A stretch of DNA of 64,000 nt from an uncultured Dehalococcoidales bacterium. GTDB taxonomy: Bacteria > Chloroflexota > Dehalococcoidia > E44-bin15. Where the stretch lies: assembly GCA_964428725.1 (NCBI GenBank), contig CAYRYW010000011.1, positions 144 to 64,143 of the forward strand, in the 5' to 3' direction. The notes below the pieces were generated by a model that had not been told where the DNA came from, made no database searches, and saw only the letters and a program-made list of their open reading frames with translations. Both the position numbers and the translations under genes were made by a program. Each line of letters opens with the position of its first letter. The first letter of the stretch is position 1. Positions 3,579 to 60,046 of the stretch are shown piece after piece.

Positions 3579-3595
3579 AACACTGAGGCATTGGC

Positions 3596-5491
3596 ATGTC
3601 CGGGGAACTGAATATCCATCTGGCAACAGGGCTGACTATCAAGGCGATAGTGTGGGGCGAGGACCGCACGACGCGATGGAATGGTTCGGCCATGGTTGCC
3701 GCCTCAGCTATTAGTGATGCTAATTGGGCCACTGGTATGATTACCTGCACGGAACAGCAAACATCCGACGCGAGCGGTACGGGTACATACGTTGGGGATT
3801 TCCCGGCAGGGATTACGACCGCTGGAGAGTATGCTATCGAGTATTACACCGGTGCCTCGCCGACACCAGGCCAAAACACGATGGGCGTCCAAACGGTCCA
3901 TTGGTCTGGCGCAGCAGTCGTCAATACAGACATCGACGCCAAAGCTGTGTGGGATCGTGTAATTACTAAGGCGAATCACAATATCGCTAATTCGGCTGGT
4001 AAGAAAGTAAGGGAGACAGCGGACTCCATTGTTATCTATGCCGGAGATGTAGTCTCGTCCACTGCGAATACAATTGTCCTTGATTCTGGCGCGAGCAGTC
4101 TTGACGGTGCCTATGATCCAGCCGCAATAGTGATTGTGTCAGGACTTGGAAGCGGGCAAGTGCGACACAGTCTTGAGTATTTCGGCAGTTCGCGCACGGC
4201 AATTGTAGATCGCGACTGGAAGGTGCAGCCAGATGCTACAAGCGAATTCGTGTTGCAGGCGGTGAACGGCGCGGCGACTACCAACGAAGGCCGGCTGCGA
4301 GCAGCAACAGGGACAACGGCGCAACTGAATGCGCTCGCAAGCACGGTAGACGACATATACAACGGGGAAACATTGCAGCTGGTAAGCGGTACGGGGCAGG
4401 ATCAATCGCGATCTATATTGGACTACGATGGCGCCACCCAAACGGTTACCGTGGATGCGTTCACTGTCACGCCGGATGCAACGACCGGTTACAAAATGCT
4501 CCCGATCATTACGGACAAATCCACTCTAGCGACTGAAGCGAAACAAGACACACTCCTTGCCAGAATCGGCGCATTCACGGGCACAGGTGTAAATACCGTC
4601 CTTGGATTCCTAAAAGCTATGGCGAGTAAGGCGGCTACGCTGCCTAGCGACATTGGTGGAACGTATGACGTGACGACAGACAGTCTTGAGGCACTTCGTG
4701 AATCACAAGACACACTGAGCACTGACATTGGTGATGTGCAGACAGATCAGACAACGCTGCTTAATAGAGTTGGAGCATTCACTGGAACTGGCGTCAATAC
4801 AATCCTCGGCTTCCTGAAGGCGATGACTAGCAAGGTTGCAACGCTACCCAGCGACATTGGCGGGACCTATGATGTGGCGGCAGATAGCCTGGAAGCCATT
4901 CGAGACAGGGGAGATGCCGCTTGGACATCGTCGGATACTGGTAGTGGAGCGTGGACCGTAACGATAACCGTCAACGATGGTACCGACCCGCTCGAAAATG
5001 CAACAGTTCGCATGACCAATGGAGGCGAGAGCTACACCGCGACAACGAACGTTAGCGGGCAATGCTCATTCTCGTTGGATTCCGCTACATGGAATGTCGC
5101 AATCACCAAGGCGACGTATTCCTTCACCCCAACTACACTTGCCGTATCGGCAGACACAAGCCAAACGTATTCGATGACAGCAGTGAGCATTCCAGCAAGT
5201 AATCCGGGCTTTGTTACGGGGTATTTCTACTGTTACGATGAGGATGGAATAGTTGAAGAAGGCGCATCGGTCTCCGTGAAAATACACGACTTGCCGGGCA
5301 CGGGGATTAGTGCGGATACCAAGGTGCGCACGGAAACGAGCGATGCAACCGGATTGGTATCATTTACCAACATGTTCATCGGAGCCCAATACAAGATACG
5401 ACGAGGCGACGAGCGACCGTGGAAGACGGTGGAGATTCCAGCGAGTGCAACCGATCCTTACGCGATTCCGAACGTGTTGGGGCTCGAATAA
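3596..5491 (+). CDS. Tail fibre protein with internally duplicated module and C-terminal Ig/carboxypeptidase-regulatory-like domains
   Basis: 631-aa ORF with a duplicated ~65-aa block (GAFTGTGVNT(V/I)LGFLKAM.SK.ATLPSDIGGTYDV). The C-terminal 'TVTITVNDGTDPLENATVRMTNGGESYTATTNVSGQCSF' is typical of a CarboxypepD_reg-like beta-sandwich. Confidence 0.6.
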   Translation: MSGELNIHLATGLTIKAIVWGEDRTTRWNGSAMVAASAISDANWATGMITCTEQQTSDASGTGTYVGDFPAGITTAGEYAIEYYTGASPTPGQNTMGVQTVHWSGAAVVNTDIDAKAVWDRVITKANHNIANSAGKKVRETADSIVIYAGDVVSSTANTIVLDSGASSLDGAYDPAAIVIVSGLGSGQVRHSLEYFGSSRTAIVDRDWKVQPDATSEFVLQAVNGAATTNEGRLRAATGTTAQLNALASTVDDIYNGETLQLVSGTGQDQSRSILDYDGATQTVTVDAFTVTPDATTGYKMLPIITDKSTLATEAKQDTLLARIGAFTGTGVNTVLGFLKAMASKAATLPSDIGGTYDVTTDSLEALRESQDTLSTDIGDVQTDQTTLLNRVGAFTGTGVNTILGFLKAMTSKVATLPSDIGGTYDVAADSLEAIRDRGDAAWTSSDTGSGAWTVTITVNDGTDPLENATVRMTNGGESYTATTNVSGQCSFSLDSATWNVAITKATYSFTPTTLAVSADTSQTYSMTAVSIPASNPGFVTGYFYCYDEDGIVEEGASVSVKIHDLPGTGISADTKVRTETSDATGLVSFTNMFIGAQYKIRRGDERPWKTVEIPASATDPYAIPNVLGLE

Positions 5492-28352: not shown

Positions 28353-29945
28353 ATGATGGCCAAGAAGAAACCGAAGCACGAAGAGAAAGAGTATGTCGGC
28401 GCGATCCGCGTGCAACCGGTCGGCATCCAGGCGGTAGATGGTGAAAGCCCGAAGGCGTTTCGCGAGGCGATGGAACCGATTGCCGTGGCCGTGCAGCAGC
28501 TTAAGAACGTGGCCATGTTCGCCTGGTATAGCTGGCACCGCAAAGTGGGCAACGTGCAGTTGGTGATGGACTGGGTCGACGAGATACTGGCGTGGGATCG
28601 CGAGGTTAAGCCGGTCGCGCAGAAGTTCGTGGCCGACACGCGGCAATACGAAAAAGACGCTGCGGCCTGGAAGAAATCGCCCAAGGGAACCCGTGGCAAG
28701 CGACCAACGAAACCGAAAAAACTCCATGCCGACCGGCCAAAGTGCCCGGTCCTTCCGTACCCGAAAGCATGTAGCAACGCGATCTATCACGAGGTCAGTG
28801 GGGCAATACCGCTACTCAACAAACGAGTGGTGGTGTTGGCGCTGAATCGGATGTTCAGCAACCTGAAAACACATCAAGTCGCCTTCCGGCCTGGGCAATG
28901 GAACCAGTGGACTGGATTCAGGGAATGGCACGTGATGCTGGCGGGGTATGGGCTATTCTCTCAATGCCACAAGCCGCAACCGATCCCGATCGATCGCGAT
29001 AATTGCACGCTGATCCCACCGGACGCGGAAGAATCACGTTGGCGGGCCTTGATTCGTGTCGATCGCGTACCGACGACGACCAAGGCAGGCAAGGAGGTAT
29101 TTCGTTCCACGCCATGGGTAGTGACGCTCAAGACTGGCGGACGGCATGACGCGAAGATTCGCAACATGCTCGAAAAATGCCACTCGGGCGAGTGGAAATT
29201 CTGCGGGTCGAATCTCGTCTGGCGCAACGGCATGTTCGACGTGGAGGTATCCTACAAGCAAGAGAAACTCGAACCGATCAAGGCCGACCCGAACAAGGTG
29301 GCCGTCTTGGTACCAGGGCGGAAACGGGGGTGGCGATTGCGGATCAACGGCCGGTCCTGGTGGCTGGGCGGCAAGGGTAGCGACCGGCTGGTGGGTGTCT
29401 TTCGTCGGCAGACGGCCGAGCGGAAGGCAACCTTCCACGCCTCGTACCGGCACGGGGGCACGGCCCGGCAAGGGCACGGGCGTCAGACGGCAATGAGGGG
29501 TTTTTACAGCAAGAAAAACATTCTGGCTAGGTACCAGCAGCAATACAACGGTCGGATTGTTCGCGAGGTAATTCAGCAGATGGAGCGGCACGGCGTGGGG
29601 ACACTCGTCTTTCGTTCGCCGTCGGGAAGCGTGGAGAAGACACGGTTGCTCTGTACGGCGGGGGCTGGTCGCAAGGGCGGATCGTGGCCGTGGCACCAGG
29701 TGGACACGCGATTGAAGGCGGTCTGTCATCGGCACGAATTAGTGTACGAATCGCCGCGTCGGAAGCGGCGCAAACGCGAGGGGTCCGGTGGCGCGAAAAA
29801 CCCCGGGACCGCTCGCAAAGTCGCAACGGCTGACGGCAACAAGGATTGGGGCGATCGGAGCAAAGCGAATGGGCGAAAGAAACGCGCAAACGGGGCGGCT
29901 CGACGCGACCTCTCGAAAACGGCCACGCAAAAGGCCGTGGGGTAA
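28353..29945 (+). CDS. Compact Cas12/TnpB-like CRISPR-associated protein, apparently RuvC-inactive and C-terminally truncated
   Basis: 530-aa ORF ending 18 nt before the first CRISPR repeat. WED-like and RuvC-like sequence patterns are present (KVAVLVPGRKRGW; GVGTLVFRSPSG; SWPWHQVDTRLKAVCHRHELVYESP), but the expected catalytic Asp and Glu are absent and there is no Zn-finger or RuvC-III. Lys/Arg-rich tail. The ORF itself is near certain; the family assignment is by eye. Confidence 0.5.
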   Translation: MMAKKKPKHEEKEYVGAIRVQPVGIQAVDGESPKAFREAMEPIAVAVQQLKNVAMFAWYSWHRKVGNVQLVMDWVDEILAWDREVKPVAQKFVADTRQYEKDAAAWKKSPKGTRGKRPTKPKKLHADRPKCPVLPYPKACSNAIYHEVSGAIPLLNKRVVVLALNRMFSNLKTHQVAFRPGQWNQWTGFREWHVMLAGYGLFSQCHKPQPIPIDRDNCTLIPPDAEESRWRALIRVDRVPTTTKAGKEVFRSTPWVVTLKTGGRHDAKIRNMLEKCHSGEWKFCGSNLVWRNGMFDVEVSYKQEKLEPIKADPNKVAVLVPGRKRGWRLRINGRSWWLGGKGSDRLVGVFRRQTAERKATFHASYRHGGTARQGHGRQTAMRGFYSKKNILARYQQQYNGRIVREVIQQMERHGVGTLVFRSPSGSVEKTRLLCTAGAGRKGGSWPWHQVDTRLKAVCHRHELVYESPRRKRRKREGSGGAKNPGTARKVATADGNKDWGDRSKANGRKKRANGAARRDLSKTATQKAVG

Positions 29946-29963
29946 GGGGTTGCGAGGGCTGCT

Positions 29964-31014
29964 GTGAAAACGTGTGGGGAGAGGGAGAGGGATTGCAGGC
30001 TGGAAAGAATCCTGCCTTCGAGTAAAGGATGCGATGTGTGAAAACGTGTGGGGAGAGGGAGAGGGATTGCAGGGTGAGTACGATCGTCCGGAAGACGGCA
30101 CACAAGGACGTGAAAACGCGTGGGGAGAGGGAGAGGGATTGCAGGCCCGGAAAAACTCCACTGGGGAGAACACGCTTTCGGGTGAAAACGTGTTGTGAGA
30201 GGGAGAGTGATTGCAGGCAAAGTGGTCGAACATCGGACAGACCTACTAATGGCAAGTGAAAACGTCTGGGGAGACGGAGAGAAATTGCAGGAGTCCTTTC
30301 CGAAAAACGTGGAAACGTCTGGGGAGACGGAGAGGGATTGCAGGGGCAGTCGTCTTGACTCGCTGCTCATTGCAGCTTCGGTGAAAAAACGTCTGGGGAG
30401 ACGGAGAGGAATTGCAGGTCGGCTTGCTTGCGATCGTTGGCGCTTCGTCGCACTTGTGAAAACGTCTGGGGAGACGGAGAGGAATTGCAGGTCCTGCTGG
30501 TCGCACCTACACACGAGAAAGCGTGCGTGAAAACGTCTGGGGAGACGGAGAGTGATTGCAGGGGGGGCTGCTGATGCCGTGTCGGTGGCGTGAAACCTTT
30601 GGGTAAAGTGAGAGGAATTGCAGGACCGAGTTAGGCGACGTGAAAACGTCTGGGGAGACGGAGAGTGATTGCAGGCCAGAGGCGGTTGTGTACAAGGCGG
30701 ATTCTGCCGGAGTGAAAACGTGTTGGGAGAGGGAGAGTGATTGCAGGCAGGAATGCGTCCGTCAATGGCTGCTGGTGGGCCGGAGAGTGAAAACGTGTGG
30801 GGAGACGGAGAGGAATTGCAGGGGGGGCTGCTGATGCCGTGTCGGTGGCGTGAAACCTTTGGGTAAGGTGAGAGTGATTGCAGGAAAAGCTACGTGTACT
30901 TGGCGAGTGTTGCGCTAGAAAGTGAAAACGTGTGGGGAGAGGGAGAGGGATTGCAGGGTTGTGTTGGTCGTGCGGCAAGTGGAAACGTCTGGGGAGACGG
31001 AGAGGAATTGCAGG
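29964..31014 (+). CRISPR. CRISPR array, 16 repeats (35-38 nt) and 15 spacers (15-39 nt)
   Basis: Repeat consensus is GTGAAAACGT(C/G)TGGGGAGA(C/G)GGAGAG(G/T)(A/G)ATTGCAGG. Repeat starts: 29964, 30038, 30110, 30182, 30256, 30309, 30381, 30456, 30527, 30590, 30640, 30712, 30787, 30850, 30922, 30979. All spacers are unique except S9, which equals S13. Confidence 0.85.
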
Positions 31015-49495: not shown

Positions 49496-50080
49496 ATGGC
49501 TAGTACTGAATTATTAGACAGGGGTACTGACCTGAAGAAGCTTACTGATAGGCAACGGCGATTTGTGCAGGAATATTTGATCTGCATGGACGGGGCTAAA
49601 GCTGCTATTGCTGCTGGGTATTCGCCGAAATGTGCTGCTGCGCAGGCAGGTAAGCTGATGCGGAAGCGGAGCATCAAGCGGGCCCTTGGCAAGGCTCTGA
49701 AGGAAATTGACTTCGGCAAGCAGCTTACCGTGGAAAACGTCTTGCAGGAATTGGCCTATTGCGTATTCCGCGACCCGGTCGATTTCTGTGACGAGAATGG
49801 CAGGATCAGCATTGACGACTTGCGCAAGTTGCCTCCGCAGGTTAGGCGGTGTATTGATGGGATCAAGTGCCGGAACACGCTGGACGATGAGGGGAAGGTG
49901 GTTGGCCAGGAAGTTGAGTTGAAATTTGTGCAGAAGGGTGCGATGATCCGGTTGGCGATGGACTACTTCAATCTGCTGCAACCCACGATTAACACGCAGG
50001 TATTCATCGATTGGGACAAGCGATTAGCGGAGACTATGCCTCAGGGGCAGGGTAGAGACGATGTATCTGGCAGCCGGTGA
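49496..50080 (+). CDS. terS: Terminase small subunit
   Basis: 'LTDRQRRFVQEYLICMDGAKAAIAAGYSPKCAAAQAGKLM' is the Terminase_2 N-terminal HTH signature. Confidence 0.8.
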   Translation: MASTELLDRGTDLKKLTDRQRRFVQEYLICMDGAKAAIAAGYSPKCAAAQAGKLMRKRSIKRALGKALKEIDFGKQLTVENVLQELAYCVFRDPVDFCDENGRISIDDLRKLPPQVRRCIDGIKCRNTLDDEGKVVGQEVELKFVQKGAMIRLAMDYFNLLQPTINTQVFIDWDKRLAETMPQGQGRDDVSGSR

Positions 50081-50166
50081 GATGGCGGATTGCACTTGAC
50101 AGCGGTGTCTGTGGACTGGTAGAGATAGTAATAGATACTGTGTCTCAGTCTCATCGTGGATAGCGT

Positions 50167-51783
50167 ATGTCGTTCATTGATCCGTATGATTTCCAACGTA
50201 TGTGTTGGCCTGATATGGTGTTGGCCAGCTACCAGCGGGAAATCATAGACAGCGTTGTGGCCAACTATGAGACAGTTGTCCCGGCTGGCAACGCTTTGGG
50301 TAAGGATTACATTGCCGCATTCATTGCGTTGTGGTGGCAATGCTCTCGGAGGCCTGCCCGCACGGTTACCACTAGTGCGAGTGGCAATCAGCTTAATGAT
50401 GTGCTATGGGGGGAAATTCGGCAGCTGATAAACACCAGTCGGCATCCGCTCCCCCTGCAATACAACCACATGCACATTCGCCAGGTCGACAATCAAGGGG
50501 AATTTGTCGACAAATCCGAGCTTATCGGCCAGACGGTCACCAAGGGTGAAGCCCTCCTAGGTAGGCACCTGCCACAATTCCTGAATATACCACGCACGCT
50601 CGTGGTATTAGATGAGTCGTCTGGCATCAAAAACACGGTCTACGAGTCGTGCAAGACGTGGGCTCACTGTATTCTCATCATCGGCAATCCGTTTCCATGC
50701 GCCAATTTCTTCCAGGAGAAGGCAGAGGCAGGAAACGTCAAGTCCATTACTGGTGATGGATTACGGACGAATGTCATCCACGTCCGCGCTGAAGACAGCC
50801 CGAACGTCAAGGCCGGACTCCAGGAGATAAGGGAAGGCAAGCGTAAGCCGGAGCCCTGCCTGGTCAAGAGTGACAAATACCCCAGGGGCGTATTGTCGGG
50901 CAAGGAATACAAGCGGTTGGCTCTATCGTGGAAGCTGAAGAACAAGCAGAATCCCCCAGAGCCGATGGTGGTACCTGGGCTAATCGGCATCAATGAGTAC
51001 ATCGAGCGTCGGACCAATTGGGACCCGATGATGCAGTCGATTAGCCTTGATGGCGAATTCTATCGTGGCAAGGAGGTCTTGCTGTATCCTCCGGAATGGC
51101 TCGCCATGTCTGCTGAATTTGCTCGCACGGCATACAACAAGGTTGGATGGACCATGGGTGTTGACCCTGCCGAGGGAGGCGACAGTACGGCGTATTGCAT
51201 ATGCTCCCGGGAAGGTATTGTTGAGTTGGTATCAGTGAAGACCCCTGACACTTCAGACATTCCCAAGCATACAATGGCGTATATGGCGAAGCACAAGCTA
51301 TCTGCCAAGGATGTGTATTTTGATGCTGGTGGCGGCGGGAAGCAGCACGTGGATTTATTGCGGGACCAATACGGGCATCACGTAAACGCTATACGGTTCG
51401 GTGCGGCCGCGACCGCCAAGCGTACTCGTGCGAGGAAGACGCTTAAGCAGCGAGAGGGCGAAGACGAGACAAAATACGCATTCAAGAACAAGCGATGCGA
51501 GATGTACTGGGCTATTCGCGAGCGATTGGACCCGGCGATGAACAAGCCATTCGCTATTCCAGTGACTGAAACGGAGTTACGTAGGCAGTTGGCGCCATTG
51601 CCATTACAATACGACGAGTCTGGCAGGATGTGGTTACCGCCTAAGCGTGCGAAGAATCCGGACAGTGCGGAGATCACCCTAGAGAAGATGTTGGGCTGCA
51701 GTCCCGACGAATCAGACGCATTTGCGTTGGCCATGTACGGGCAGGTTGCCAAGACGCTCCGTGGCCGTGTGGGCGCGTTTTGA
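50167..51783 (+). CDS. terL: Terminase large subunit
   Basis: 538 aa directly after terS. 'VVPAGNALGKD' is Walker A-like and 'LVVLDESSGI' Walker B-like, with a C-terminal nuclease-like half. Confidence 0.75.
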   Translation: MSFIDPYDFQRMCWPDMVLASYQREIIDSVVANYETVVPAGNALGKDYIAAFIALWWQCSRRPARTVTTSASGNQLNDVLWGEIRQLINTSRHPLPLQYNHMHIRQVDNQGEFVDKSELIGQTVTKGEALLGRHLPQFLNIPRTLVVLDESSGIKNTVYESCKTWAHCILIIGNPFPCANFFQEKAEAGNVKSITGDGLRTNVIHVRAEDSPNVKAGLQEIREGKRKPEPCLVKSDKYPRGVLSGKEYKRLALSWKLKNKQNPPEPMVVPGLIGINEYIERRTNWDPMMQSISLDGEFYRGKEVLLYPPEWLAMSAEFARTAYNKVGWTMGVDPAEGGDSTAYCICSREGIVELVSVKTPDTSDIPKHTMAYMAKHKLSAKDVYFDAGGGGKQHVDLLRDQYGHHVNAIRFGAAATAKRTRARKTLKQREGEDETKYAFKNKRCEMYWAIRERLDPAMNKPFAIPVTETELRRQLAPLPLQYDESGRMWLPPKRAKNPDSAEITLEKMLGCSPDESDAFALAMYGQVAKTLRGRVGAF

Positions 51784-51806
51784 AAACCATTTACGAGGGC
51801 AGAAGG

Positions 51807-53315
51807 ATGGCAAAGAAGTCAGCGAAGAAGAAGGCTGTGCGGCGCACGAAGAAGGCTGAACCGCAGCCAACGGAGAATACTGGTAGGCGAAGAATGCTGG
51901 CCAATGCAGTACGCTCGATTAGTCGCTATTACAACGATAGCGACGACATCGACCCTCGCCGCAGCATCAATGATGAGTGTGGCTACCCTGCGACTGACTC
52001 AATCACGTTGCAGAATTACCGGGACATGTATTTGCGCGAGGGTGTGGCTTCGCGTGTCGTGGAGATATTCCCTTCGGAATCATGGCTATTGACGCCGACG
52101 GTTACCGAGGACGCGAACCCGCAAACCAGCACGGAATTCGAGCGTGATTGGGAGGGGCTCAATCGGGAGATCGCTGGATCAAGCTGGTACCAGGGTGAAA
52201 CCGGCGGGATAGTGTGGGATTACCTTCAGCGTGTTGATGTATTGAGCGGCATCGGGTCGTATGGCGTCATTTTGATCGGGATTGATGATGGATTGCCATT
52301 GCATGAGCCCGTGAAGGGATTCGAGCGTGACATGCCGACGTCGCCGGTGGGCGAGTACAATGTCCTGTTCTTCCGGGCGTTTTCTGAGGACTTGGCCCAG
52401 ATTACTGCGTATGAAACCGACCCATCAAATTCCAGGTATGGGCAGCCCACGCAATATGCTCTTACCGTAGGGACTGGTGACGGCACGCTGGATTCTTCTG
52501 GCGGTTCTGCGTCACCTACGCAATCTACAGTCAATGTGCATTGGTCGCGCATCATCCACATTGCGGACAATCTGCGTAGCAGTGAGCTATTTGGGCTACC
52601 GAGGCAATTGCAGGTATTCAATTACCTGTTGAATATCCGGAAGCTGTTGGGTGCTTCGCCTGAGATGTATTACAAGGGGGCATTTCCTGGAATCAGCTTT
52701 GAAACGCATCCGGAGCTCGGCGGCGATGTGGATATCGACAACGACGACATGCGCACGATGATCGAGAACTACGCAAACGGTCTTCAGCGATACATCATGC
52801 TTTTGGGGATGTCGGCGAACAGCTTACGTACACAGGTGGAGGACCCGTCGGACCACTTGCAGGTGCAGATAGATGCGATCTGTATTCGATTGGGTGTTCC
52901 GAAGCGGATATTCATGGGCTCGGAGCGTGGGGAATTGGCTTCCGGCCAGGATGAGCGGGCATGGAATCGACGATTATCGAAGCGACAGAACGATTACCTG
53001 AGTCCTCGGGTGATTTCACCAACGATAGACAGGCTGATATTGTTTGGTGTATTATCGGAGCCGGGTGACGGCTACACGATTCTGTGGCCGAGCATGGATA
53101 ATCTGACTGACGAGCAACGGGCGGTCATAGCGGCGAAGCGCACGGAATCGATGGTGAAATATCTGCAGGGCGGTGGCGAGAATTTGCTCCATCCGAAGGA
53201 TTTCCTCACTGGCGTGCTTGAGATAGAGGACGATGTCGCGGAGGGCTACTTGGAGAACGTCATGCCGGCCGAAGACGAGGGCGAGTTTGATGTTGATACC
53301 GAAGGCGATACGTGA
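51807..53315 (+). CDS. Portal protein
   Basis: About 500 aa immediately after terL, with a basic N-terminus and acidic C-terminus. Followed by the MuF-like gene. Confidence 0.75.
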   Translation: MAKKSAKKKAVRRTKKAEPQPTENTGRRRMLANAVRSISRYYNDSDDIDPRRSINDECGYPATDSITLQNYRDMYLREGVASRVVEIFPSESWLLTPTVTEDANPQTSTEFERDWEGLNREIAGSSWYQGETGGIVWDYLQRVDVLSGIGSYGVILIGIDDGLPLHEPVKGFERDMPTSPVGEYNVLFFRAFSEDLAQITAYETDPSNSRYGQPTQYALTVGTGDGTLDSSGGSASPTQSTVNVHWSRIIHIADNLRSSELFGLPRQLQVFNYLLNIRKLLGASPEMYYKGAFPGISFETHPELGGDVDIDNDDMRTMIENYANGLQRYIMLLGMSANSLRTQVEDPSDHLQVQIDAICIRLGVPKRIFMGSERGELASGQDERAWNRRLSKRQNDYLSPRVISPTIDRLILFGVLSEPGDGYTILWPSMDNLTDEQRAVIAAKRTESMVKYLQGGGENLLHPKDFLTGVLEIEDDVAEGYLENVMPAEDEGEFDVDTEGDT

Positions 53316-53634
53316 TCGAAGAGAGGAATTCTGCGAGCTATACAGGCAGGGTAGCACGTTGAAGGAGATATCGCGACTAATGCGTTGCGGTACGTCCCGT
53401 GCGAGAGAGAGGCTAGTGTTCTGGGGTGTGGTGATTCGTTCCAATCAAGAAATTGGGGACGCTAGGGCGTACATGCCTACGCCTGAGGAAATACGTCAGA
53501 AGACGGCAGAAATCCAGGCCCGGTGGACCGAGAAGGATCGCGAGGAGCGAGGCGAAGTGCATGAGGAGTTGCATTTACCTATGGCAATTCCATCAAGGGG
53601 CAGGCACAACGGCGATCCGATATATCCCGAGTGA
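53290..53634 (+). CDS. Small HTH protein
   Basis: 'FCELYRQGSTLKEISRLMRCGTSRARERL' resembles a sigma-70 region 4/LuxR-type HTH. Confidence 0.4.
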   Translation: MLIPKAIRDRREEFCELYRQGSTLKEISRLMRCGTSRARERLVFWGVVIRSNQEIGDARAYMPTPEEIRQKTAEIQARWTEKDREERGEVHEELHLPMAIPSRGRHNGDPIYPE

Positions 53635-53646
53635 AGGCAGCGTGTC

Positions 53647-55914
53647 ATGGCAGCTAGAAATCCAGTGAAGATGGACCCAACACGTTCGCAGACATTGCGT
53701 CGGGTTGCGCAGGCGGATATTCGTAGGCGATACCGGAAGGTGAAGGCGGCTCTATTTGACTTGGTCGTCAGGGAGGATGCGTTTGGTCTGGCAGGTCCGA
53801 AATCTATATTGCTGGCAGGAAACCAGCGGTTCCGATTCCAGTCGACCCCGGAGCAATTGGCGGGATTCCGCCAGTGGCTGGAGGACCAACTCAACACGCA
53901 GATGCGTGGGATCAAGATCGAGGATTTAGACGAAGCATTCCTCGAAAAGTACATTGAGGAAGGCTATAGGAAGGGGGCTGGTCGTGCATTTGATGATACA
54001 CGCAAGGCGGCTTTACAAACGGGCGAAGACGTATCTGGCTTCTATCAGGGTACCCGGGAGGAATTCCTTCGTTCTAGCTTTGCTCAGCCTGTGCAACAGG
54101 AGAAGGTGAAGACCCTGGCCGCCAGGACGATGACGGACCTGAAGGGTGCTACGAGTGATTTGGCGACCAAATTAAGCAGAGCATTGACTGACGGATTAGT
54201 GCAAGGTGACAACCCACGCAAGATCGCGAGGGACATGGCAGCGATTGTGAACGGGAATAGGCGGCGAGCTGAACTGATTGCCAGGACCGAGATTATTCGG
54301 GCGCACGCGGAAGGCCAGCTAGACGCCATGGAGAGGCTAGGCGTCGAAGAGGTGGGCGTGCAGGTTGAGTGGAGTACTGCTGGAGACGATAGGGTATGTT
54401 TCCCGGCGTTTACGATGGTGACGACGCTGGACGGCGACATTCCCATTCAGGCTGTCCGTCCTGGAATGATGGTACTAACGCGCAAAGGATACAAGAGGGT
54501 CACTGCAGCTACGAAGAGAGACTATAGCGGAAAGATGGTTAGCATTGCGGCCGGGAAGCATCACGTAACGGCGACGTCAGATCATCCATTCTGGGATCGC
54601 GTGAAACAGGGCTGGATTCCGGCCGATGCACTATCCGTGGGCGACACGTTGGAGTCGTTCAAAGACGAGGGCGTCAAGATCGACAGCGTTTTTGATTTCA
54701 GACTCTCTTATTCGCACAACAGTCCACCCATTGCTGGTGAGGTAGGCATCTTTTCTTGCGTCTTTGGATGGGTCCCTGTGCCAGTAGTCACCGTCGACTT
54801 CGAGGGCTATCCTTGGGGACTCCAAGAGAAAGTCAATCGCGTATCTACCAAGGGCAGCTTCCTTGATATATTCAATGCCGAGGTTATCAAGAGAAAGTCG
54901 CACATCACGCTCTATCGTTGTTTCCGAAGTGGAACGTCTATAGCACGCCAGGCTGCAAAACCGCTTGTCTGTCTGGGAAGGGCATCTGCGAAAGCGTTTC
55001 CCACAAGTGTCGCACTTAATGTAGTCAGGAGGTCTTCTGCATTCCTCGGAGCAATGCTTCCTGTCAAGTCCACGCGCAATGTCGGAGCCTTTGTGCCAAA
55101 AGCGAGTGCCGCATGTTTGGCACGCGCGCCATTCGCCGGCCATATGCTCCCTCTTGCACGCGATAGAGCAGTAGTTGTATCTGTGTTGAACACTCTTGTT
55201 GATGGTGAAGTTGGAGCCACAGCCGACACAAGTCTTGGTGACGACGACCTTTTGCCTGCTGGCGTCGTAGCATTCCCTGCAGCAGAATTGGCGAGTGTTT
55301 CGTTTACTCCTGTGGACAAGCTTTCCGCATGTTGGGCAAGCACGGTCTCCGCCATTTTTTCGGCTCTCAAAGTAGCACGCTCTAGAGCAAAATACATTTG
55401 TGCAGCCGTCTTTGAGCGACTGCGTGTGTCTGGCGAACGATTGGTTGCATATGCTGCAAGCAAACTGAAATGGCATGGGCGACCGCTCCTGAGTGATATA
55501 ACCGTACTATATCATCGGCTGGCCAGAAAGGCAATAGCGGTGTATGACATACAGGTTGAGGACGAGCCGGAATTCTTCGCGAATGGCCTATTGGTGCATA
55601 ACTGCACTCTATGCAAACCTCTTGATGGAATAGTGGTCACACTGAAGGAAGCGAGGGGCAAGATACCGCGCCACCCAAACTGTCGGTGTGCGTGGACCCC
55701 AGCCAACGTGGGTGAAAACCAGTCTGGCCAGAAACGCAGTAAGTCCTCGATAGCCAAGTCTATTAGTGCCTCCTTGGCGGCAGAAATACCGCAACGCAGC
55801 AAGCGAACGATTGCCCAGCAGAAACGCCGGACGAGTTGGGCTGGTGTTGATACGCCAATAGCGGCGAAGCGGCCCAGGAAATTTGTCTCTCCGGCACGGG
55901 GGCGGAAGAAATGA
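53647..55914 (+). CDS. Head morphogenesis protein (Mu F / SPP1 gp7 family) interrupted by an intein
   Basis: 'ARTEIIRAHAEGQLDAM...VEWSTAGDDRV|C' continues after 402 aa with 'CTLCKPLDGIVV...IPRHPNCRCAWTP', restoring the family motif D.RVC..C..LDG...HPNCRC. Confidence 0.85.
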   Translation: MAARNPVKMDPTRSQTLRRVAQADIRRRYRKVKAALFDLVVREDAFGLAGPKSILLAGNQRFRFQSTPEQLAGFRQWLEDQLNTQMRGIKIEDLDEAFLEKYIEEGYRKGAGRAFDDTRKAALQTGEDVSGFYQGTREEFLRSSFAQPVQQEKVKTLAARTMTDLKGATSDLATKLSRALTDGLVQGDNPRKIARDMAAIVNGNRRRAELIARTEIIRAHAEGQLDAMERLGVEEVGVQVEWSTAGDDRVCFPAFTMVTTLDGDIPIQAVRPGMMVLTRKGYKRVTAATKRDYSGKMVSIAAGKHHVTATSDHPFWDRVKQGWIPADALSVGDTLESFKDEGVKIDSVFDFRLSYSHNSPPIAGEVGIFSCVFGWVPVPVVTVDFEGYPWGLQEKVNRVSTKGSFLDIFNAEVIKRKSHITLYRCFRSGTSIARQAAKPLVCLGRASAKAFPTSVALNVVRRSSAFLGAMLPVKSTRNVGAFVPKASAACLARAPFAGHMLPLARDRAVVVSVLNTLVDGEVGATADTSLGDDDLLPAGVVAFPAAELASVSFTPVDKLSACWASTVSAIFSALKVARSRAKYICAAVFERLRVSGERLVAYAASKLKWHGRPLLSDITVLYHRLARKAIAVYDIQVEDEPEFFANGLLVHNCTLCKPLDGIVVTLKEARGKIPRHPNCRCAWTPANVGENQSGQKRSKSSIAKSISASLAAEIPQRSKRTIAQQKRRTSWAGVDTPIAAKRPRKFVSPARGRKK
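54397..55602 (+). mobile_element. Intein (Hint domain), 402 aa
   Basis: Block A 'CFPAFTMVTTLDGDIPIQAVRPGMMV', block B 'VTATSDHPF' (TxxH) and blocks F/G 'VYDIQVEDEPEFFANGLLVHN' followed by the +1 Cys. Confidence 0.75.
54631..55476 (-). CDS. Five-fold zinc-ribbon plus DUF559/Vsr-like (PD-(D/E)xK) endonuclease, nested antisense inside the intein
   Basis: Five 'CxxCG...(F/Y/H)C(S/C)xxC' modules, then 'GRYAIDFLLESPRIALEVDGDYWHRD...LTSNGWTVVRI'. It has its own AGGAG RBS 9 nt upstream of the ATG on the minus strand. Confidence 0.75.
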   Translation of the reverse strand: MPFQFACSICNQSFARHTQSLKDGCTNVFCSRACYFESRKNGGDRACPTCGKLVHRSKRNTRQFCCRECYDASRQKVVVTKTCVGCGSNFTINKSVQHRYNYCSIACKREHMAGEWRACQTCGTRFWHKGSDIARGLDRKHCSEECRRPPDYIKCDTCGKRFRRCPSQTDKRFCSLACYRRSTSETTIERDVRLSLDNLGIEYIKEAALGRYAIDFLLESPRIALEVDGDYWHRDPSKDARKDAYLTSNGWTVVRIRESEIKNAVDLDALVFERLQRVAHG

Positions 55915-56150
55915 CCAATCTATCAGTACCTCAACAAATAGTCCTAGAGCTATTATCGGATGGGCTGCCTCACACGAAGGACGAAATTCGCGAGGCCCTC
56001 GAAAAGCCGGACATGTCAAACGTCACGTTACGTAGCGTGATCTACAGGGCGAGGCGTAATCTTGCTGGGACCGGACAGACGATTGTCTGTGAGTATTTCC
56101 ATCGGAAAACGCACTACCGATGGGTCCGGTTGCTATCTAGTGGGGAGTAG
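55911..56150 (+). CDS. Small winged-helix-like DNA-binding protein
   Basis: 'QQIVLELLSDGLPHTKDEIREAL' is wHTH-like; ATGA overlap. Confidence 0.4.
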   Translation: MTNLSVPQQIVLELLSDGLPHTKDEIREALEKPDMSNVTLRSVIYRARRNLAGTGQTIVCEYFHRKTHYRWVRLLSSGE

Positions 56151-56218
56151 CCACCCCAGGGGTGAGAAACCATGCACTCTGCTTGCCTGAAGATAACTGA
56201 CACGTTTATCTTCGGCGC

Positions 56219-57733
56219 ATGGAAAACCTCACACTCAACTTTGTGGGCAAGGCCGAATTCCGCAGTGACAACGGCACGGAATATCTAGTTGCCCCTCTAA
56301 CGCTGATTGTACCGGGCGTGCTCAATGGTAGTGCTGGTCCGCTGTATTACCCGGCGGACGAAATAGCCAAGAGCCGCGAATCGTGGAACGGCGTGCCTCT
56401 CGTCGTCAATCATCCGACTGTTAACGGTGAGTCGGTCTCTGTTAAGACGGATGGCGTCCTGGATGAATTCGGGATAGGTCACATTCGCAACGCCTCGATC
56501 GATGGTCGCGGTCACCTCAAGGCTGAAGGGTGGTTTGCGGTCGACCAGACTTCCAAAGTCGACAAGCGAATTCTTACATCGCTTCAAGACCGCCGTCCAA
56601 TCGAATTATCTACTGGGCTCATGACCGAGAATGAGCACGCTCCAGGCGCGACACCAACAGGGGATGTCTACACGTACATAGCGCGGAATTACGAGCCGGA
56701 TCACCTGGCGATTCTGCCGGACCAAGTAGGAGCATGTTCCATTAAGGACGGATGCGGGGTACTGATGAATGAACAAGCGGAGGATGGCAGTGGTGCAAGT
56801 GCGGGGCCCACGAAAACCACAGTAGGGAACGAGTTATCGATAGACACGATCAAGGATGTGCTGAGGCAGCAGCTTCGGGATCGGTTTAGTACTGGCGCCG
56901 GATTGGACACGGTGTACCTGGAGGACTTATTCCAGAACCGCGTGGTCTTCCTTCGCAAGGAGCGATACTTCTCTTTGCCCTACACGCGAACTCGCGAAAA
57001 GGTCGTGCTGTCTGGCGATTTGCCAACGGAAGTAATCAAGGTAGTCAGGTGGAAGCCTGTAAACGGAAAAATGCTGAATTCGGAGGGTGACACTATGTCC
57101 CTGAGTGATGAGAAACGTCTTGAGATGGTCGACAGCTTGATTGAAAACTCTTGCTGCTACGACGAGACGAATCGTTCTGATCTGATGGATTTGAATGATG
57201 CGATGCTTACCAACGCTGTCAAGGCAGTCGAGAAAGTCGCGGAAGAGTCCTTGGTTGCGAACGCCGCAAAGGAAGGATTCGAGGACGCGGATGGAAATCG
57301 GCACACGTATGACGCCGACAAGAAAACATGGGCTACCGTGCCGAAGGAGCCGGTGGAGAACGCGACAAACACAGAGGAAGAGATGGACGAGAAGAAAGCA
57401 AGCAAGCCAATGACCGAAAACGAATGGCTTGAATCGGCTCCGGAAAGCGTGCAGAACACATTCCGCCATGCTCAGGTTCTTGAGCAGCGAGAGAAAGATG
57501 CCATTGTCGAGAAGCTGATTGGAAACGTCGGCGACGACAAGAAAGAATCGGTGGCGAAGGTGCTCAATTCCAAGAGCCTCGACGAATTGACTGTATTGGC
57601 ATCGCTTGCGCCGAAGGAAGAACCGCCGCAACAGCACTTTATTGGGGCGTCAGCAGTGGACAACATGGGCCGACCTGGCATGGATCAGGCGTCGGAGGAC
57701 CACTTGCTGTTGCCTGGTGAAGCAGGCGAGTAG
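56219..57733 (+). CDS. Scaffolding / prohead maturation protein candidate (DUF2213-like N-terminus)
   Basis: 504 aa between the MuF-like and capsid genes. N-terminal 'YLVAPLTLIVPGVLNGSAGPLYYPADEI...WNGVPLVVNHP' and an acidic, helical C-terminal half. Confidence 0.5.
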   Translation: MENLTLNFVGKAEFRSDNGTEYLVAPLTLIVPGVLNGSAGPLYYPADEIAKSRESWNGVPLVVNHPTVNGESVSVKTDGVLDEFGIGHIRNASIDGRGHLKAEGWFAVDQTSKVDKRILTSLQDRRPIELSTGLMTENEHAPGATPTGDVYTYIARNYEPDHLAILPDQVGACSIKDGCGVLMNEQAEDGSGASAGPTKTTVGNELSIDTIKDVLRQQLRDRFSTGAGLDTVYLEDLFQNRVVFLRKERYFSLPYTRTREKVVLSGDLPTEVIKVVRWKPVNGKMLNSEGDTMSLSDEKRLEMVDSLIENSCCYDETNRSDLMDLNDAMLTNAVKAVEKVAEESLVANAAKEGFEDADGNRHTYDADKKTWATVPKEPVENATNTEEEMDEKKASKPMTENEWLESAPESVQNTFRHAQVLEQREKDAIVEKLIGNVGDDKKESVAKVLNSKSLDELTVLASLAPKEEPPQQHFIGASAVDNMGRPGMDQASEDHLLLPGEAGE

Positions 57734-57789
57734 TCAACACACGCAAGCAAGCCAGTGCGTATAAGGCATTGGAATAAGGAGAACACACT

Positions 57790-58269
57790 ATGACAGGCAC
57801 GAAGATCATTGCTTCGGCAGAGCCCAAGGGGGTATTTAAGGAAGGCTTTCTGGCTTCCGGGCAGACCCCGAAGCCGGGTGTCGTGATGATGAAGTCCGCT
57901 GCCACGGAGCCGGTGAACGGACGGTACGAGTGGACTGTTTACGCACCGGGCACTGACGGGAACCGTCGGCTTGTTGCGGTGCTACTCGAAGACGAATTGC
58001 AAGGCAGGACTTATGACGACGCCTACGAGGCTGGGTCTACGTGCTACCTTTATGTTCCCGTCATGGGCGAGAAACTGAACATGCGATATCAGGACGTTGC
58101 AGGTACCGGCGACAGCAAGGCGATCGGTGATATGCAGATTGTCGACTCGGGGACTGGCAAGTTGATTGCTACGACTGGAACGCCGGAATCCGAGCCGTTC
58201 GAGTGCATCGAAACATCAACCAATCCAGTAGCGGACACGCTGCTACTGTCGGAATACACTGGATACTAA
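57790..58269 (+). CDS. Head decoration-like protein (paralogue A)
   Basis: 159 aa, immediately upstream of the capsid gene. Strongly similar to the next ORF. Confidence 0.45.
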   Translation: MTGTKIIASAEPKGVFKEGFLASGQTPKPGVVMMKSAATEPVNGRYEWTVYAPGTDGNRRLVAVLLEDELQGRTYDDAYEAGSTCYLYVPVMGEKLNMRYQDVAGTGDSKAIGDMQIVDSGTGKLIATTGTPESEPFECIETSTNPVADTLLLSEYTGY

Positions 58270-58287
58270 TCCGGAAGGGATTGAGAT

Positions 58288-58779
58288 ATGACTGGCGACA
58301 AAATCATTGCCACGGCTTACCCCAAGGGGGTGTTCATTGAGGGGATTGTGGATTCCTCGATCACGCCGAAGCCTGGCACCCTAATGGTGCGAAAAGGCAG
58401 CACGGAAATGGTGAATGGCAAATTCACTTACACCGACGTATTGGATCGCCTGAACGAGGGCGATGACGGAATCCGGGTTACTATTGCCATTCTGATCGAA
58501 GACGAATTGCAAGGGAAGAACTACGACGATGCCTATTCTGGAGGCGAGACGTGCTTCCTGTATTGCCCGGCACCAGGCGAGCAATTCAACATGCGGGTGG
58601 CCGATGTGTCCGGTACTGGTGACGATCACGCAATCGGCGATTTGTTCATAGCGCAAACGACCACGGGCAAGTTGATTGCTACGACGGGCTCACCTGAGGC
58701 CGAGCCGTTCGAGTGCCTGGAGACATCAACCAATCCGACGTCGGAGCAGCTGCTGCTCTGTGAATACACGGGATACTAA
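58288..58779 (+). CDS. Head decoration-like protein (paralogue B)
   Basis: 163 aa sharing 'KGVF.EG...TPKPG', 'LLEDELQG..YDDAY', 'GKLIATTG.PE.EPFEC.ETSTNP' and 'EYTGY' with paralogue A. Confidence 0.45.
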   Translation: MTGDKIIATAYPKGVFIEGIVDSSITPKPGTLMVRKGSTEMVNGKFTYTDVLDRLNEGDDGIRVTIAILIEDELQGKNYDDAYSGGETCFLYCPAPGEQFNMRVADVSGTGDDHAIGDLFIAQTTTGKLIATTGSPEAEPFECLETSTNPTSEQLLLCEYTGY

Positions 58780-58823
58780 TGTCTTGCCAAGTGTGCAAGT
58801 AACTGACATACGAGGAGAAACAC

Positions 58824-59987
58824 ATGTTTACATCTGATTTCATCATCAACGGCCAGGGAGTTGGCGACGTTGGCGAGCGGTTCCATAACCAATATCGGTT
58901 CGAGCCGCGATTGCTGCGTCCATTTGTTGGTCGTGATGGAAAAGCGTACGTGACGGTAAAGACGGGCCGGCAGCTTGTCGACAACAAAACTGGCAAGAGC
59001 AAGCCGGAATACCGCACGGTAACGGTGAACGATGCACGGCATCATGGATTTGACATTCCCATGGACGTGACGAATGCAACGTCCTTGCGTAAGGATGAGT
59101 GGATCAAATTCGATGAAGCGGTTGTCATGGCTACCCGTCAGCGATTGCGAGCGTGGACGGATTTGGCCAGTGCAAATTCCTATGGCGGATTCGATGGCAT
59201 GTCCAAGACGATCCTGGAACACGAAACGCAAAGTGATCCGGGTGAGGCGATGGTCGACATGCACGGCACGACCGAGGGTCGCAACGATGCACCGTTGTAC
59301 AAGCTGGAGGGAATGCCGCTGCCGATTACGCATGCGGATTTCTTCATCAAGCATCGTACCTTGATGCAGTCGAGAAACATGGGCTCGCCATTGGACACAA
59401 CCACGGCCGAGGCCGCTGGGCGGCGTGTGGCTGAGCAGATCGAAAAGTCGGTCATTGGCACGGTGACGCCGTATGCGTATGGCGTGAGCACTGCGTACAG
59501 CCAAACGTCGAAGGTCTATGGGTACACGACCCATCCGGCGCGTAACACGAAGACTGACGTAACGACACCTACGGGAGTCAGCACGAACGCCACGACCGTG
59601 TCCGAAGTCTTGGGCATGATTAAGACGCTGAACGACGACGGATTCTATGGTCCGTTCATGATGTACCATTCGACGGATTGGGCTCCATTCATGGACGCCG
59701 ATTATTCGGCGAACAAGGGCGACAATACGCTTCGGGACCGGCTGAAGAAGATCGACTCTATCAGCGACGTGCGACAACTGGATTTCCTGACTAGTACGTT
59801 TACCCTGATTCTCGTCCAGATGACGGCCGACGTGGCACGAGCCATCAATGGCATGGACATAACCACGTTGCGTTGGGAGACTCGCGGCGGAATGCAGATC
59901 AACTATAAGGTCATGGCAATCCAAGTGCCGCAAATTCGCGACGACTACAACAACAACTGCGGCATCATGCACGCGACTACTGCGTAG
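58824..59987 (+). CDS. Major capsid protein (HK97-fold, encapsulin-like family)
   Basis: 387 aa with a GAGGAGAAACAC RBS. 'PLPITHADFFIKHRTL...GSPLDTTTAEAAGRRVAEQIEKSVIG' resembles the encapsulin/linocin-like MCP pattern. A terminator hairpin follows. Confidence 0.75.
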   Translation: MFTSDFIINGQGVGDVGERFHNQYRFEPRLLRPFVGRDGKAYVTVKTGRQLVDNKTGKSKPEYRTVTVNDARHHGFDIPMDVTNATSLRKDEWIKFDEAVVMATRQRLRAWTDLASANSYGGFDGMSKTILEHETQSDPGEAMVDMHGTTEGRNDAPLYKLEGMPLPITHADFFIKHRTLMQSRNMGSPLDTTTAEAAGRRVAEQIEKSVIGTVTPYAYGVSTAYSQTSKVYGYTTHPARNTKTDVTTPTGVSTNATTVSEVLGMIKTLNDDGFYGPFMMYHSTDWAPFMDADYSANKGDNTLRDRLKKIDSISDVRQLDFLTSTFTLILVQMTADVARAINGMDITTLRWETRGGMQINYKVMAIQVPQIRDDYNNNCGIMHATTA

Positions 59988-59998
59988 TCTTCTTGGGC

Positions 59999-60046
59999 TC
60001 CTCCCGGCGGTGTGTGCCCCTGTTGCGCATCGCCGGGGGGCTTATT
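59999..60046 (+). terminator. Intrinsic-terminator-like hairpin after the capsid gene
   Basis: CCTCCCGGCG (59999-60008) pairs with CGCCGGGGGG (60030-60039), followed by CTTATTT. Confidence 0.4.

Follow-up and report, generated by a model that had tools for sequence, protein, structure and literature searches.

An intein in a MuF-like phage gene of an uncultured Dehalococcoidales bacterium with a putative homing endonuclease gene on its opposite strand

Introduction

The DNA analysed here (hereafter the window) is a stretch of 64,000 nucleotides (nt) from contig CAYRYW010000011.1 of an uncultured Dehalococcoidales bacterium, which carries on its plus strand a MuF-like phage head-morphogenesis gene interrupted by an intein. 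A second open reading frame (ORF) of 281 codons lies on the minus strand, wholly within this intein, and an earlier note made from the sequence alone had proposed that it is a nuclease gene in an arrangement not previously described. The locus thus raises the question of which of the two overlapping frames encodes a selected protein, and whether the minus-strand product is the homing endonuclease of the intein that surrounds it. We addressed this by profile, structure and substitution analyses of the locus and its environmental relatives, which suggest that the element is probably a mobile intein with its homing endonuclease encoded as a separate gene on the opposite strand.

A nuclease gene antisense to the intein

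The minus-strand ORF (Table 1) is the only one on that strand of the window with homologues. Its five tandem zinc-ribbon modules (residues 7-34, 47-69, 83-107, 119-146 and 155-178), presumed to form the DNA-binding region, are followed by a catalytic domain matching the Pfam families DUF559 (E=6.4e-12, 45.8 bits with a cut-off of 20.6) and MTES_1575 (8.6e-10), with a weak match to Vsr. A profile of the nuclease matched PDB entry 3R3P, the catalytic domain of I-Bth0305I, a homing endonuclease, with E=2.7e-15. The AlphaFold2 (AF2) model of the protein reached a pLDDT (predicted local distance difference test) score of 90.1 and shows repeated hairpin-helix units, also of high pLDDT, in the N-terminal 180 residues. 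Foldseek searches with this model retrieved 3R3P (E=3.6e-6, template modelling score (TM) 0.74), followed by Vsr (1CW0, E=6.6e-4). Furthermore, the nuclease has 30 full-length homologues with 37-59% identity, in which the Cys and the acidic and His residues are invariant. E189, E206, D215, E226, D228 and H233 are invariant across 24 sequences and are candidate catalytic residues. The protein-like ORF, its five zinc ribbons, its DUF559/Vsr-like domain and an AGGAG Shine-Dalgarno sequence 9 nt before the ATG had all been read from the letters in the earlier note, and each was recovered here, with the Vsr family itself matching only weakly.

Stop codons and selection in the two frames

The two frames are in exact antisense register, as previously noted, the first codon position falling on nucleotide 55474 in the plus frame and on 55476 in the minus frame. 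A stop codon in either frame then lies opposite TTA, CTA or TCA and no other codon, and since these Leu (TTA, CTA) and Ser (TCA) codons all have synonyms, both frames can remain open at no amino-acid cost. This plausibly explains why it is the sole register among antisense-embedded loci. The nuclease gene contains none of these codons where 5.7 would be expected from the codon usage of the window (P=0.002), which is weak evidence for a single locus, and the comparative evidence is decisive. The host ORF contains 13 TTA, CTA or TCA codons, all necessarily outside the overlap.

Openness on the antisense strand could also arise without any coding function, as a shadow of a codon bias that avoids TTA, CTA and TCA, and an ORF of this kind is present in the window. 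The HK97-like capsid gene (58824-59987, plus strand; DUF6260/Linocin_M18) contains no TTA, CTA or TCA in 387 codons, and a 398-residue ORF without Pfam match (58776-59972, minus strand) covers it in the same exact register. This ORF is probably a codon-bias shadow, serving as an internal negative control, and its existence means that a long ORF in exact antisense register can be a mere shadow. For the ORF at 54631-55476 such an origin is refuted by homology and substitution data and retains next to no probability. It has at least 30 full-length homologues, many of them free-standing genes, its Pfam, PDB and fold matches agree, its Cys and putative catalytic residues are invariant, and it has a putative promoter and a Shine-Dalgarno sequence of its own.

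Alignment-based scans of JGI metagenomes and IMG/VR recovered 160 related loci, whereas an IMG/VR scan with the single nuclease protein gave no matches. In 129 of the 160 loci (approximately 94 distinct, GC 29-68%), the nuclease gene is entirely enclosed by a long opposite-strand ORF, always in the identical register and usually of 650-1750 residues. The closest relative of the nuclease (59% identity) is located on an AT-rich contig, where the antisense frame is fully open and contains the same intein blocks. Among 95 distinct embedded nuclease genes spanning the same GC range, TTA, CTA and TCA are absent from all 23,984 codons, although extein codon usage predicts 3.7 per gene. In contrast, 25 distinct free-standing relatives contain 183 in 6,144 codons (approximately eight per gene), and no gene among them has zero. 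The earlier proposal that the host frame stays open through avoidance of these codons in the nuclease gene therefore holds across the family.

Substitutions between embedded pairs at 85-95% protein identity were used to compare synonymous change on both strands, a check that the earlier note had put forward. Differences per site amount to 0.074, 0.039 and 0.179 at nuclease codon positions 1, 2 and 3, respectively, and single-base codon changes are synonymous versus non-synonymous at 218:78 in the nuclease frame and at 72:224 in the host frame. Host-frame identity in the linker between the two intein halves (0.235-0.259) equals the value obtained for free-standing genes in their virtual antisense frame (0.245-0.266). 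Together, these ratios and the shadow-like linker identity indicate that selection acts on the nuclease frame rather than on a linker protein. The nuclease frame is thus under ordinary purifying selection, and the intein linker is selected only to lack stop codons. The 251-residue linker of the window, which had been described as featureless, has no Pfam family match (best E=0.059), and a functional sense-frame linker domain was rejected on this basis and for want of extra host-frame constraint. Where the tail of the N-terminal Hint half overlaps the nuclease C-terminus, host-frame identity is 0.226 in embedded and 0.165 in free-standing loci, a small and alignment-sensitive difference that was not relied on. 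Of the outcomes on which the earlier note had staked its proposal, those covered here are in its favour: the sense linker has no recognised fold or family, the antisense ORF has many homologues and related inteins keep their antisense frame open.

The host gene and its intein

Residues 175-251 of the host protein match Phage_Mu_F (E=8.2e-11), followed by Hint and Intein_splicing matches distributed over residues 250-652. The intein interrupts the Phage_Mu_F profile at approximately position 78 of 112, and its junctions read DDRV↓CFPAFT on the N side and LLVHN↓CTLC on the C side (arrows mark splice junctions). The linker is inserted between Hint blocks B and F, which is the usual position of an endonuclease, and from 54631 on, the last ~30 codons of the N-terminal Hint half share their DNA with the 3' end of the nuclease gene.

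Embedded relatives share these flanks, with ...D[DE]R[VT]↓CFPA(G/W)T... at the start, T..H approximately 59-60 residues further in and ...(F/Y)(Y/F)ANG(I/V)LVHN↓C..C...G at the end. The D[DE]R[VT]↓C junction is present in 64-68 of 68-69 related inteins (329-445 residues), which also retain Cys1 (68/68), TxxH (68/69), HN (69/69) and Cys+1 (68/69). Their hosts are MuF-domain proteins, either stand-alone or fused to portal or other domains, and all of them are broken at one point of the Pfam profile.

In fractured genes, the host is divided into two ORFs. The host gene of the window runs as one unbroken 755-residue ORF across both intein halves, and a split intein was rejected for this locus on that ground. 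An open frame could still fail to be read productively, either because MuF is assembled by trans-splicing of two polypeptides or because the allele is non-functional and complemented elsewhere. Split or fractured versions do exist within the same family (see below), and Vsr-like nuclease genes have been reported between split intein halves (Dassa 2009, PMC2677866). Such a reading is nonetheless improbable. The roughly 280 codons kept stop-free in about 94 distinct sequences (GC 29-68%) would be pointless without read-through, the splicing residues are fully conserved, a C-intein fragment would have neither an internal start nor a Shine-Dalgarno sequence in the window, and no second MuF gene was noticed among its long ORFs, only some of which were scanned with Pfam.

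Expression signals of the nuclease gene

The C-intein DNA of the window contains, on the nuclease strand, a putative sigma-70-type promoter with an extended -10 element, which is the sole promoter-like match within 54300-56000, and the Shine-Dalgarno sequence mentioned above (Table 1). In 19 related loci, TTGACt-17-TGnTATAAT occurs at the same 29-nt spacing (with TG in 17) and is followed by TCAGGAG. A second subgroup of 13 loci has a TGnTATAAT -10-like box 4-9 nt (mode 6) before the ATG, resembling a leaderless arrangement. Overall, -10-like boxes were detected in 56 of 85 upstream regions, compared with 13.7% of control windows.

Synonymous choices in the host frame were examined in 24 loci whose DNA encodes LY(H/Q) at this point. 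Among them, TTA or CTA is used for Leu in 19 (13.7% in exteins), A is the last base of the codon before it in 22 (14.7%) and TAT is used for Tyr in 22 (39%). These biased host-frame choices build TATAAT on the nuclease strand, and independent transcription of the nuclease gene can be considered well supported by such sequence patterns.

Several conserved host-frame "motifs" of the C-intein (55477-55540 and equivalents in related loci) mirror nuclease expression signals on the opposite strand. K(W/R)H corresponds to the nuclease start MPF, LL to the Shine-Dalgarno sequence, LYH to the TGATATAAT -10 box and (G/A)KS to the TTGACT -35 box. Alignment-based definitions of intein motifs for this family would be contaminated by such DNA-level constraints.

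Evidence for homing and a proposed mechanism

In IMG/VR, an uninterrupted D[DE]RVCxxC without intein is present in no fewer than 66 of the 80 nearest MuF relatives, so the distribution of the intein is sporadic. In addition, free-standing relatives of the nuclease face intein-less MuF or portal-MuF genes in convergent orientation from a short distance downstream, with 100-290 nt between the nuclease 3' end and D[DE]R[VL]CxxC (L004-L006, 4001-4916; L043, L068, L165 and L032/L033/L035); in L004 the two genes overlap by ~25 nt. By analogy, this placement corresponds to a classic homing endonuclease beside its target, and it offers an origin for the antisense orientation.

We propose that the plus strand is expressed as the 755-residue MuF-like precursor, from which the class-1-type intein (Cys1, TxxH, His-Asn, Cys+1) would self-excise, as its conserved splicing residues suggest, joining DDRV to CTLCKPLDG and restoring the MuF motif DDRVCxxCxxxDG. 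Approximately 250 residues in the middle of the intein would represent an unselected read-through peptide. The minus strand would encode the 281-residue nuclease, whose zinc ribbons may bind DNA and whose I-Bth0305I/Vsr-like domain may cut it, and which the conserved signals suggest is expressed from its own sigma-70-type promoter and Shine-Dalgarno sequence in the C-intein DNA. The enzyme most likely cuts intein-less MuF alleles of co-infecting phages near the site encoding DDRVC/CxxC, and recombinational repair would then copy the intein along with the nuclease gene. Free-standing relatives convergent to the 3' ends of intein-less MuF genes are the probable source of the antisense orientation.

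Several points weigh against this interpretation. We infer transcription, translation, splicing and homing alike from sequence and its conservation, and the homologue-less ORF opposite the capsid gene makes openness alone weak evidence. The Intein_splicing (E=8.1e-7, 29.4 bits, curated cut-off 35.8) and Hint_2 (24.2, cut-off 28.4) matches of the host protein fall below their curated cut-offs, which is attributed to the splitting of the profile by the large (280-codon) insert; some related inteins exceed the cut-offs (L048 with 55.8 bits, L061 with 45.2). A single-sequence AF2 model of the 402-residue intein was uninformative (pLDDT 32) and hence silent on the effect of the linker on folding. 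Furthermore, one promoter match in the window sequence compares with 0.9 expected in shuffled sequence and thus represents no excess, and conservation of the -35 and -10 elements could partly result from protein constraint on the C-intein strands (GK..., ...LYH).

Alternatively, the nuclease could be real and expressed without being the homing enzyme of the intein, acting as an independent selfish or competitive nuclease that, for example, cuts rival phage genomes or marks recombination boundaries, and for which the intein is a safe harbour. The same nuclease family occurs free-standing in many phages, the cleavage site of the enzyme is only predicted, and some antisense VSR-like inteins look vertically inherited according to a preprint (bioRxiv 10.1101/2025.01.02.630785). 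We consider this unlikely, as the tight tie to one MuF site, in 129 embedded loci and in the adjoining free-standing relatives, and the sporadic occurrence of the intein among MuF relatives are both what homing predicts. A mobile intein with an opposite-strand homing endonuclease gene is accordingly the reading we favour for the window.

Architectural variants among the related loci

Around this one target site, the nuclease occurs in several states: free-standing and convergent, antisense-nested, same-strand nested in the +1 frame, and fused or split. The antisense-embedded arrangement was also found in cultured bacteria, namely Streptomyces alboflavus NRRL B-2373 (L176, NZ_JNXT01000054.1, nuclease at 3001-3759), where the host-frame ORF has 1708 residues and ends in ...FWAEGVLVHN↓CTPCADIDG, and Gordoniibacillus kamchatkensis (L180); both copies are presumably located in prophages, and the strains may be of use as experimental systems. 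In three loci (L081, 3001-3690; L082, 1505-2383; L164, 3001-3834), a member of the nuclease family lies on the same strand in the +1 frame inside an open contiguous intein. In the AT-rich L167 (~2300-4100), an N-intein is fused in frame to the nuclease and is followed by a stop codon and a separate C-intein ORF starting at MKDIDLNRW..., which is of the split or "fractured" type. L125 (~2600-4400) contains an antisense nuclease opposite a host frame with many stop codons, and its intein is split or dead.

Three minus-strand MuF-like hosts (L135:1723-4734, L136:1807-4773 and L160:1813-4812) contain an apparent second, downstream intein at ...HP(N/L)C↓...(S/H)N↓CRC, a site that resembles that of Gordonia phage Malisha gp5. 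These would represent two inteins per MuF gene, with an antisense nuclease in the first only. Furthermore, Mycobacterium phage KilKor (L228, NC_053209.1) contains an unannotated antisense relative of the nuclease (2001-2681, 31% identity), flanked by a DNA methyltransferase gene (gp53) and methyltransferase fragments (gp55 and gp56), a possible case of a methylase locus disrupted by an endonuclease. Annotations of this ORF in sister phages are hypothetical protein or endonuclease.

It is possible, albeit doubtful on present evidence, that the antisense arrangement is a selected expression strategy and the preferred state of this element family rather than a rare accident. If so, the sigma-70 promoter in the C-intein DNA would uncouple the endonuclease from the late structural operon, and the enzyme could be produced early, at a stage when the genomes of co-infecting phages are still open to cutting and repair. 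MuF expression might additionally be modulated by convergent transcription or antisense RNA, and the family would constitute a natural series of the capture of free-standing endonucleases by mini-inteins.

Comparison with known systems

Contrary to the earlier note, this kind of arrangement has been described. A recent preprint (Gosselin, Arsenault & Gogarten 2025, bioRxiv 10.1101/2025.01.02.630785) reports full inteins with antisense LAGLIDADG or VSR-like endonucleases in actinobacteriophages, with minor capsid proteins among their hosts and no recognisable structure in the sense-frame middle, and proposes that a free-standing nuclease gene invaded the intein. It calls the architecture rare, attributes the antisense LAGLIDADG type to Gorbalenya 1998 and Gogarten 2002, and reports the same-strand overlapping type only for an endonuclease VII-like enzyme. 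The text searched contains neither the word "promoter" nor a discussion of register or TTA/CTA/TCA avoidance. Those inteins resemble the one in the window in being contiguous and located in a phage minor-capsid-type gene, with the region between the splicing blocks encoding a Vsr-like nuclease on the opposite strand. Antisense nesting is, in contrast to their reported rarity, the majority state of the large metagenomic family to which the nuclease of the window belongs. The intein of Malisha gp5 contains a 316-residue antisense ORF in the same exact register, with helix-turn-helix (HTH) modules and a Vsr-like domain. It differs from the window in having HTH modules instead of zinc ribbons at the nuclease N-terminus, and in its host, a VG15-family protein interrupted at another site (HDN↓C...VHN↓CKC).

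Antisense or out-of-frame LAGLIDADG genes have been reported in inteins of Synechocystis DnaX and a Chloroflexus SpoVR-like protein (Gorbalenya 1998; Gogarten 2002; both cited in the preprint), and the out-of-frame endonuclease of a cyanobacterial dnaX intein is the subject of another preprint (bioRxiv 10.64898/2026.09.14.751524). As in the window, intein and exteins share one frame and the endonuclease uses another, the endonuclease is under purifying selection and belongs to a sporadic intein, and the arrangement is read as a secondary invasion of a mini-intein. The enzymes are of the LAGLIDADG type and the hosts are cellular, whereas a PD-(D/E)xK/Vsr-like enzyme and a phage structural gene are involved here.

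Fractured genes, in which a free-standing Vsr-like or GIY-YIG gene separates the halves of a split intein (Dassa et al. 2009, PMC2677866), likewise combine a phage gene, an intein and an I-Bth0305I-related, Vsr-like nuclease with its own expression signals in one locus. Their nuclease is on the same strand and their host in two ORFs, in contrast to the antisense nuclease and contiguous intein of the window. I-Bth0305I itself belongs to the EDxHD family of homing endonucleases and comes from a group I intron in recA (Taylor et al. 2011, PMC3239194; PDB 3R3P). It shares with the window nuclease the sequence and fold of the catalytic domain and a modular build, with the DNA-binding region at the N-terminus and the Vsr-like nuclease at the C-terminus, but is intron-encoded on the sense strand, lacks a zinc-ribbon array and targets recA. 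Finally, free-standing phage homing endonucleases of the T4 seg/mob type are located beside their target genes (review PMC2988022), as are the free-standing relatives adjoining intein-less MuF genes at 100-290 nt from the intein site. The window copy differs in that it is not intergenic and is nested in the intein with complete coding overlap. The element of the window is therefore a new lineage of an already described kind, the antisense-endonuclease inteins. New features are the zinc-ribbon module, the MuF site just before CxxC, the conserved internal promoter, the fixed register and an abundance that contradicts the designation as rare.

Other features of the window

The MuF-like gene is located just downstream of a portal gene (51780-53315). 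Nearly all long ORFs of the window (1-64000) lie on the plus strand, and tRNA genes were not found; two further long ORFs of the minus strand (2123-3037 and 29726-30514) overlap genes of the plus strand and match nothing. A megablast search of positions 50000-60000 against cultured phages gave no match, and the source phage thus lacks a close cultured relative.

Table 1. Position, strand and supporting evidence of the features of the intein-containing locus in the window.
Feature	Position	Strand	Basis or remark
MuF-like head-morphogenesis (minor capsid) precursor gene, intein-interrupted	53647..55914	+	755-residue ORF; Phage_Mu_F and Hint/Intein_splicing matches
N-extein, ending in ...EWSTAGDDRV	53647..54396	+	Junction located in sequence
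Intein, 402 residues, host residues 251-652 (Cys251 to Asn652)	54397..55602	+	Canonical junctions and blocks
N-terminal Hint half, CFPAFT...TSDHPFW...GWIPADALSVGDTL...VFDFRL	54397..54720	+	Hint_2/PT-HINT, residues 250-337; 3' boundary approximate
Intein Cys1	54397-54399	+	Class 1 nucleophile
Intein block B, TSDH (TxxH)	54574-54585	+	Motif
Sense-frame read-through linker, ~251 residues, antisense shadow of the nuclease gene	54721..55473	+	No Pfam family
C-terminal Hint half, ...LLSDITVLYHRLARKAIAVYDIQVEDEPEFFANGLLVHN	55477..55602	+	Opposite strand is the putative nuclease promoter and 5' leader
Intein terminal His-Asn	55597-55602	+	Motif
C-extein, starting at Cys+1 (CTLCKPLDG...)	55603..55914	+	Junction located in sequence
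Cys+1 of the C-extein	55603-55605	+	Class 1 nucleophile
Homing-endonuclease-type gene, 281 residues, ATG start	54631..55476	-	Wholly inside the 755-residue plus-strand ORF
Five tandem zinc-ribbon modules, nuclease residues 7-178	54943..55458	-	C..C(8-25)C[SC]..C regular expression; invariant Cys columns
Vsr-like/EDxHD (I-Bth0305I-type, DUF559) catalytic domain, residues ~180-266	54679..54939	-	Pfam, PDB profile, Foldseek
Shine-Dalgarno sequence AGGAG, 9 nt before the nuclease ATG	55486..55490	-	Sequence; TCAGGAG-like in the closest subgroup
Putative sigma-70-type promoter, TTGCCT-17 nt-TG-n-TATAGT	55506..55534	-	-10 hexamer ends 29 nt before the ATG

Implications

The locus represents a natural case of approximately 280 codons that are read on both strands, one of which is under purifying selection and the other only kept free of stop codons, and it supports the view that bifunctional inteins originated by "splicing first, endonuclease captured later". 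Environmental phages commonly have an architecture that was recently described as rare among cultured actinophages. As gene callers usually report only one of two such genes, these elements are systematically under-annotated, as exemplified by Malisha, where the host gene gp5 is annotated and the 316-residue antisense nuclease ORF is not. Zinc-ribbon and Vsr-like nucleases and inteins that tolerate large inserts may furthermore serve protein engineering and genome editing.

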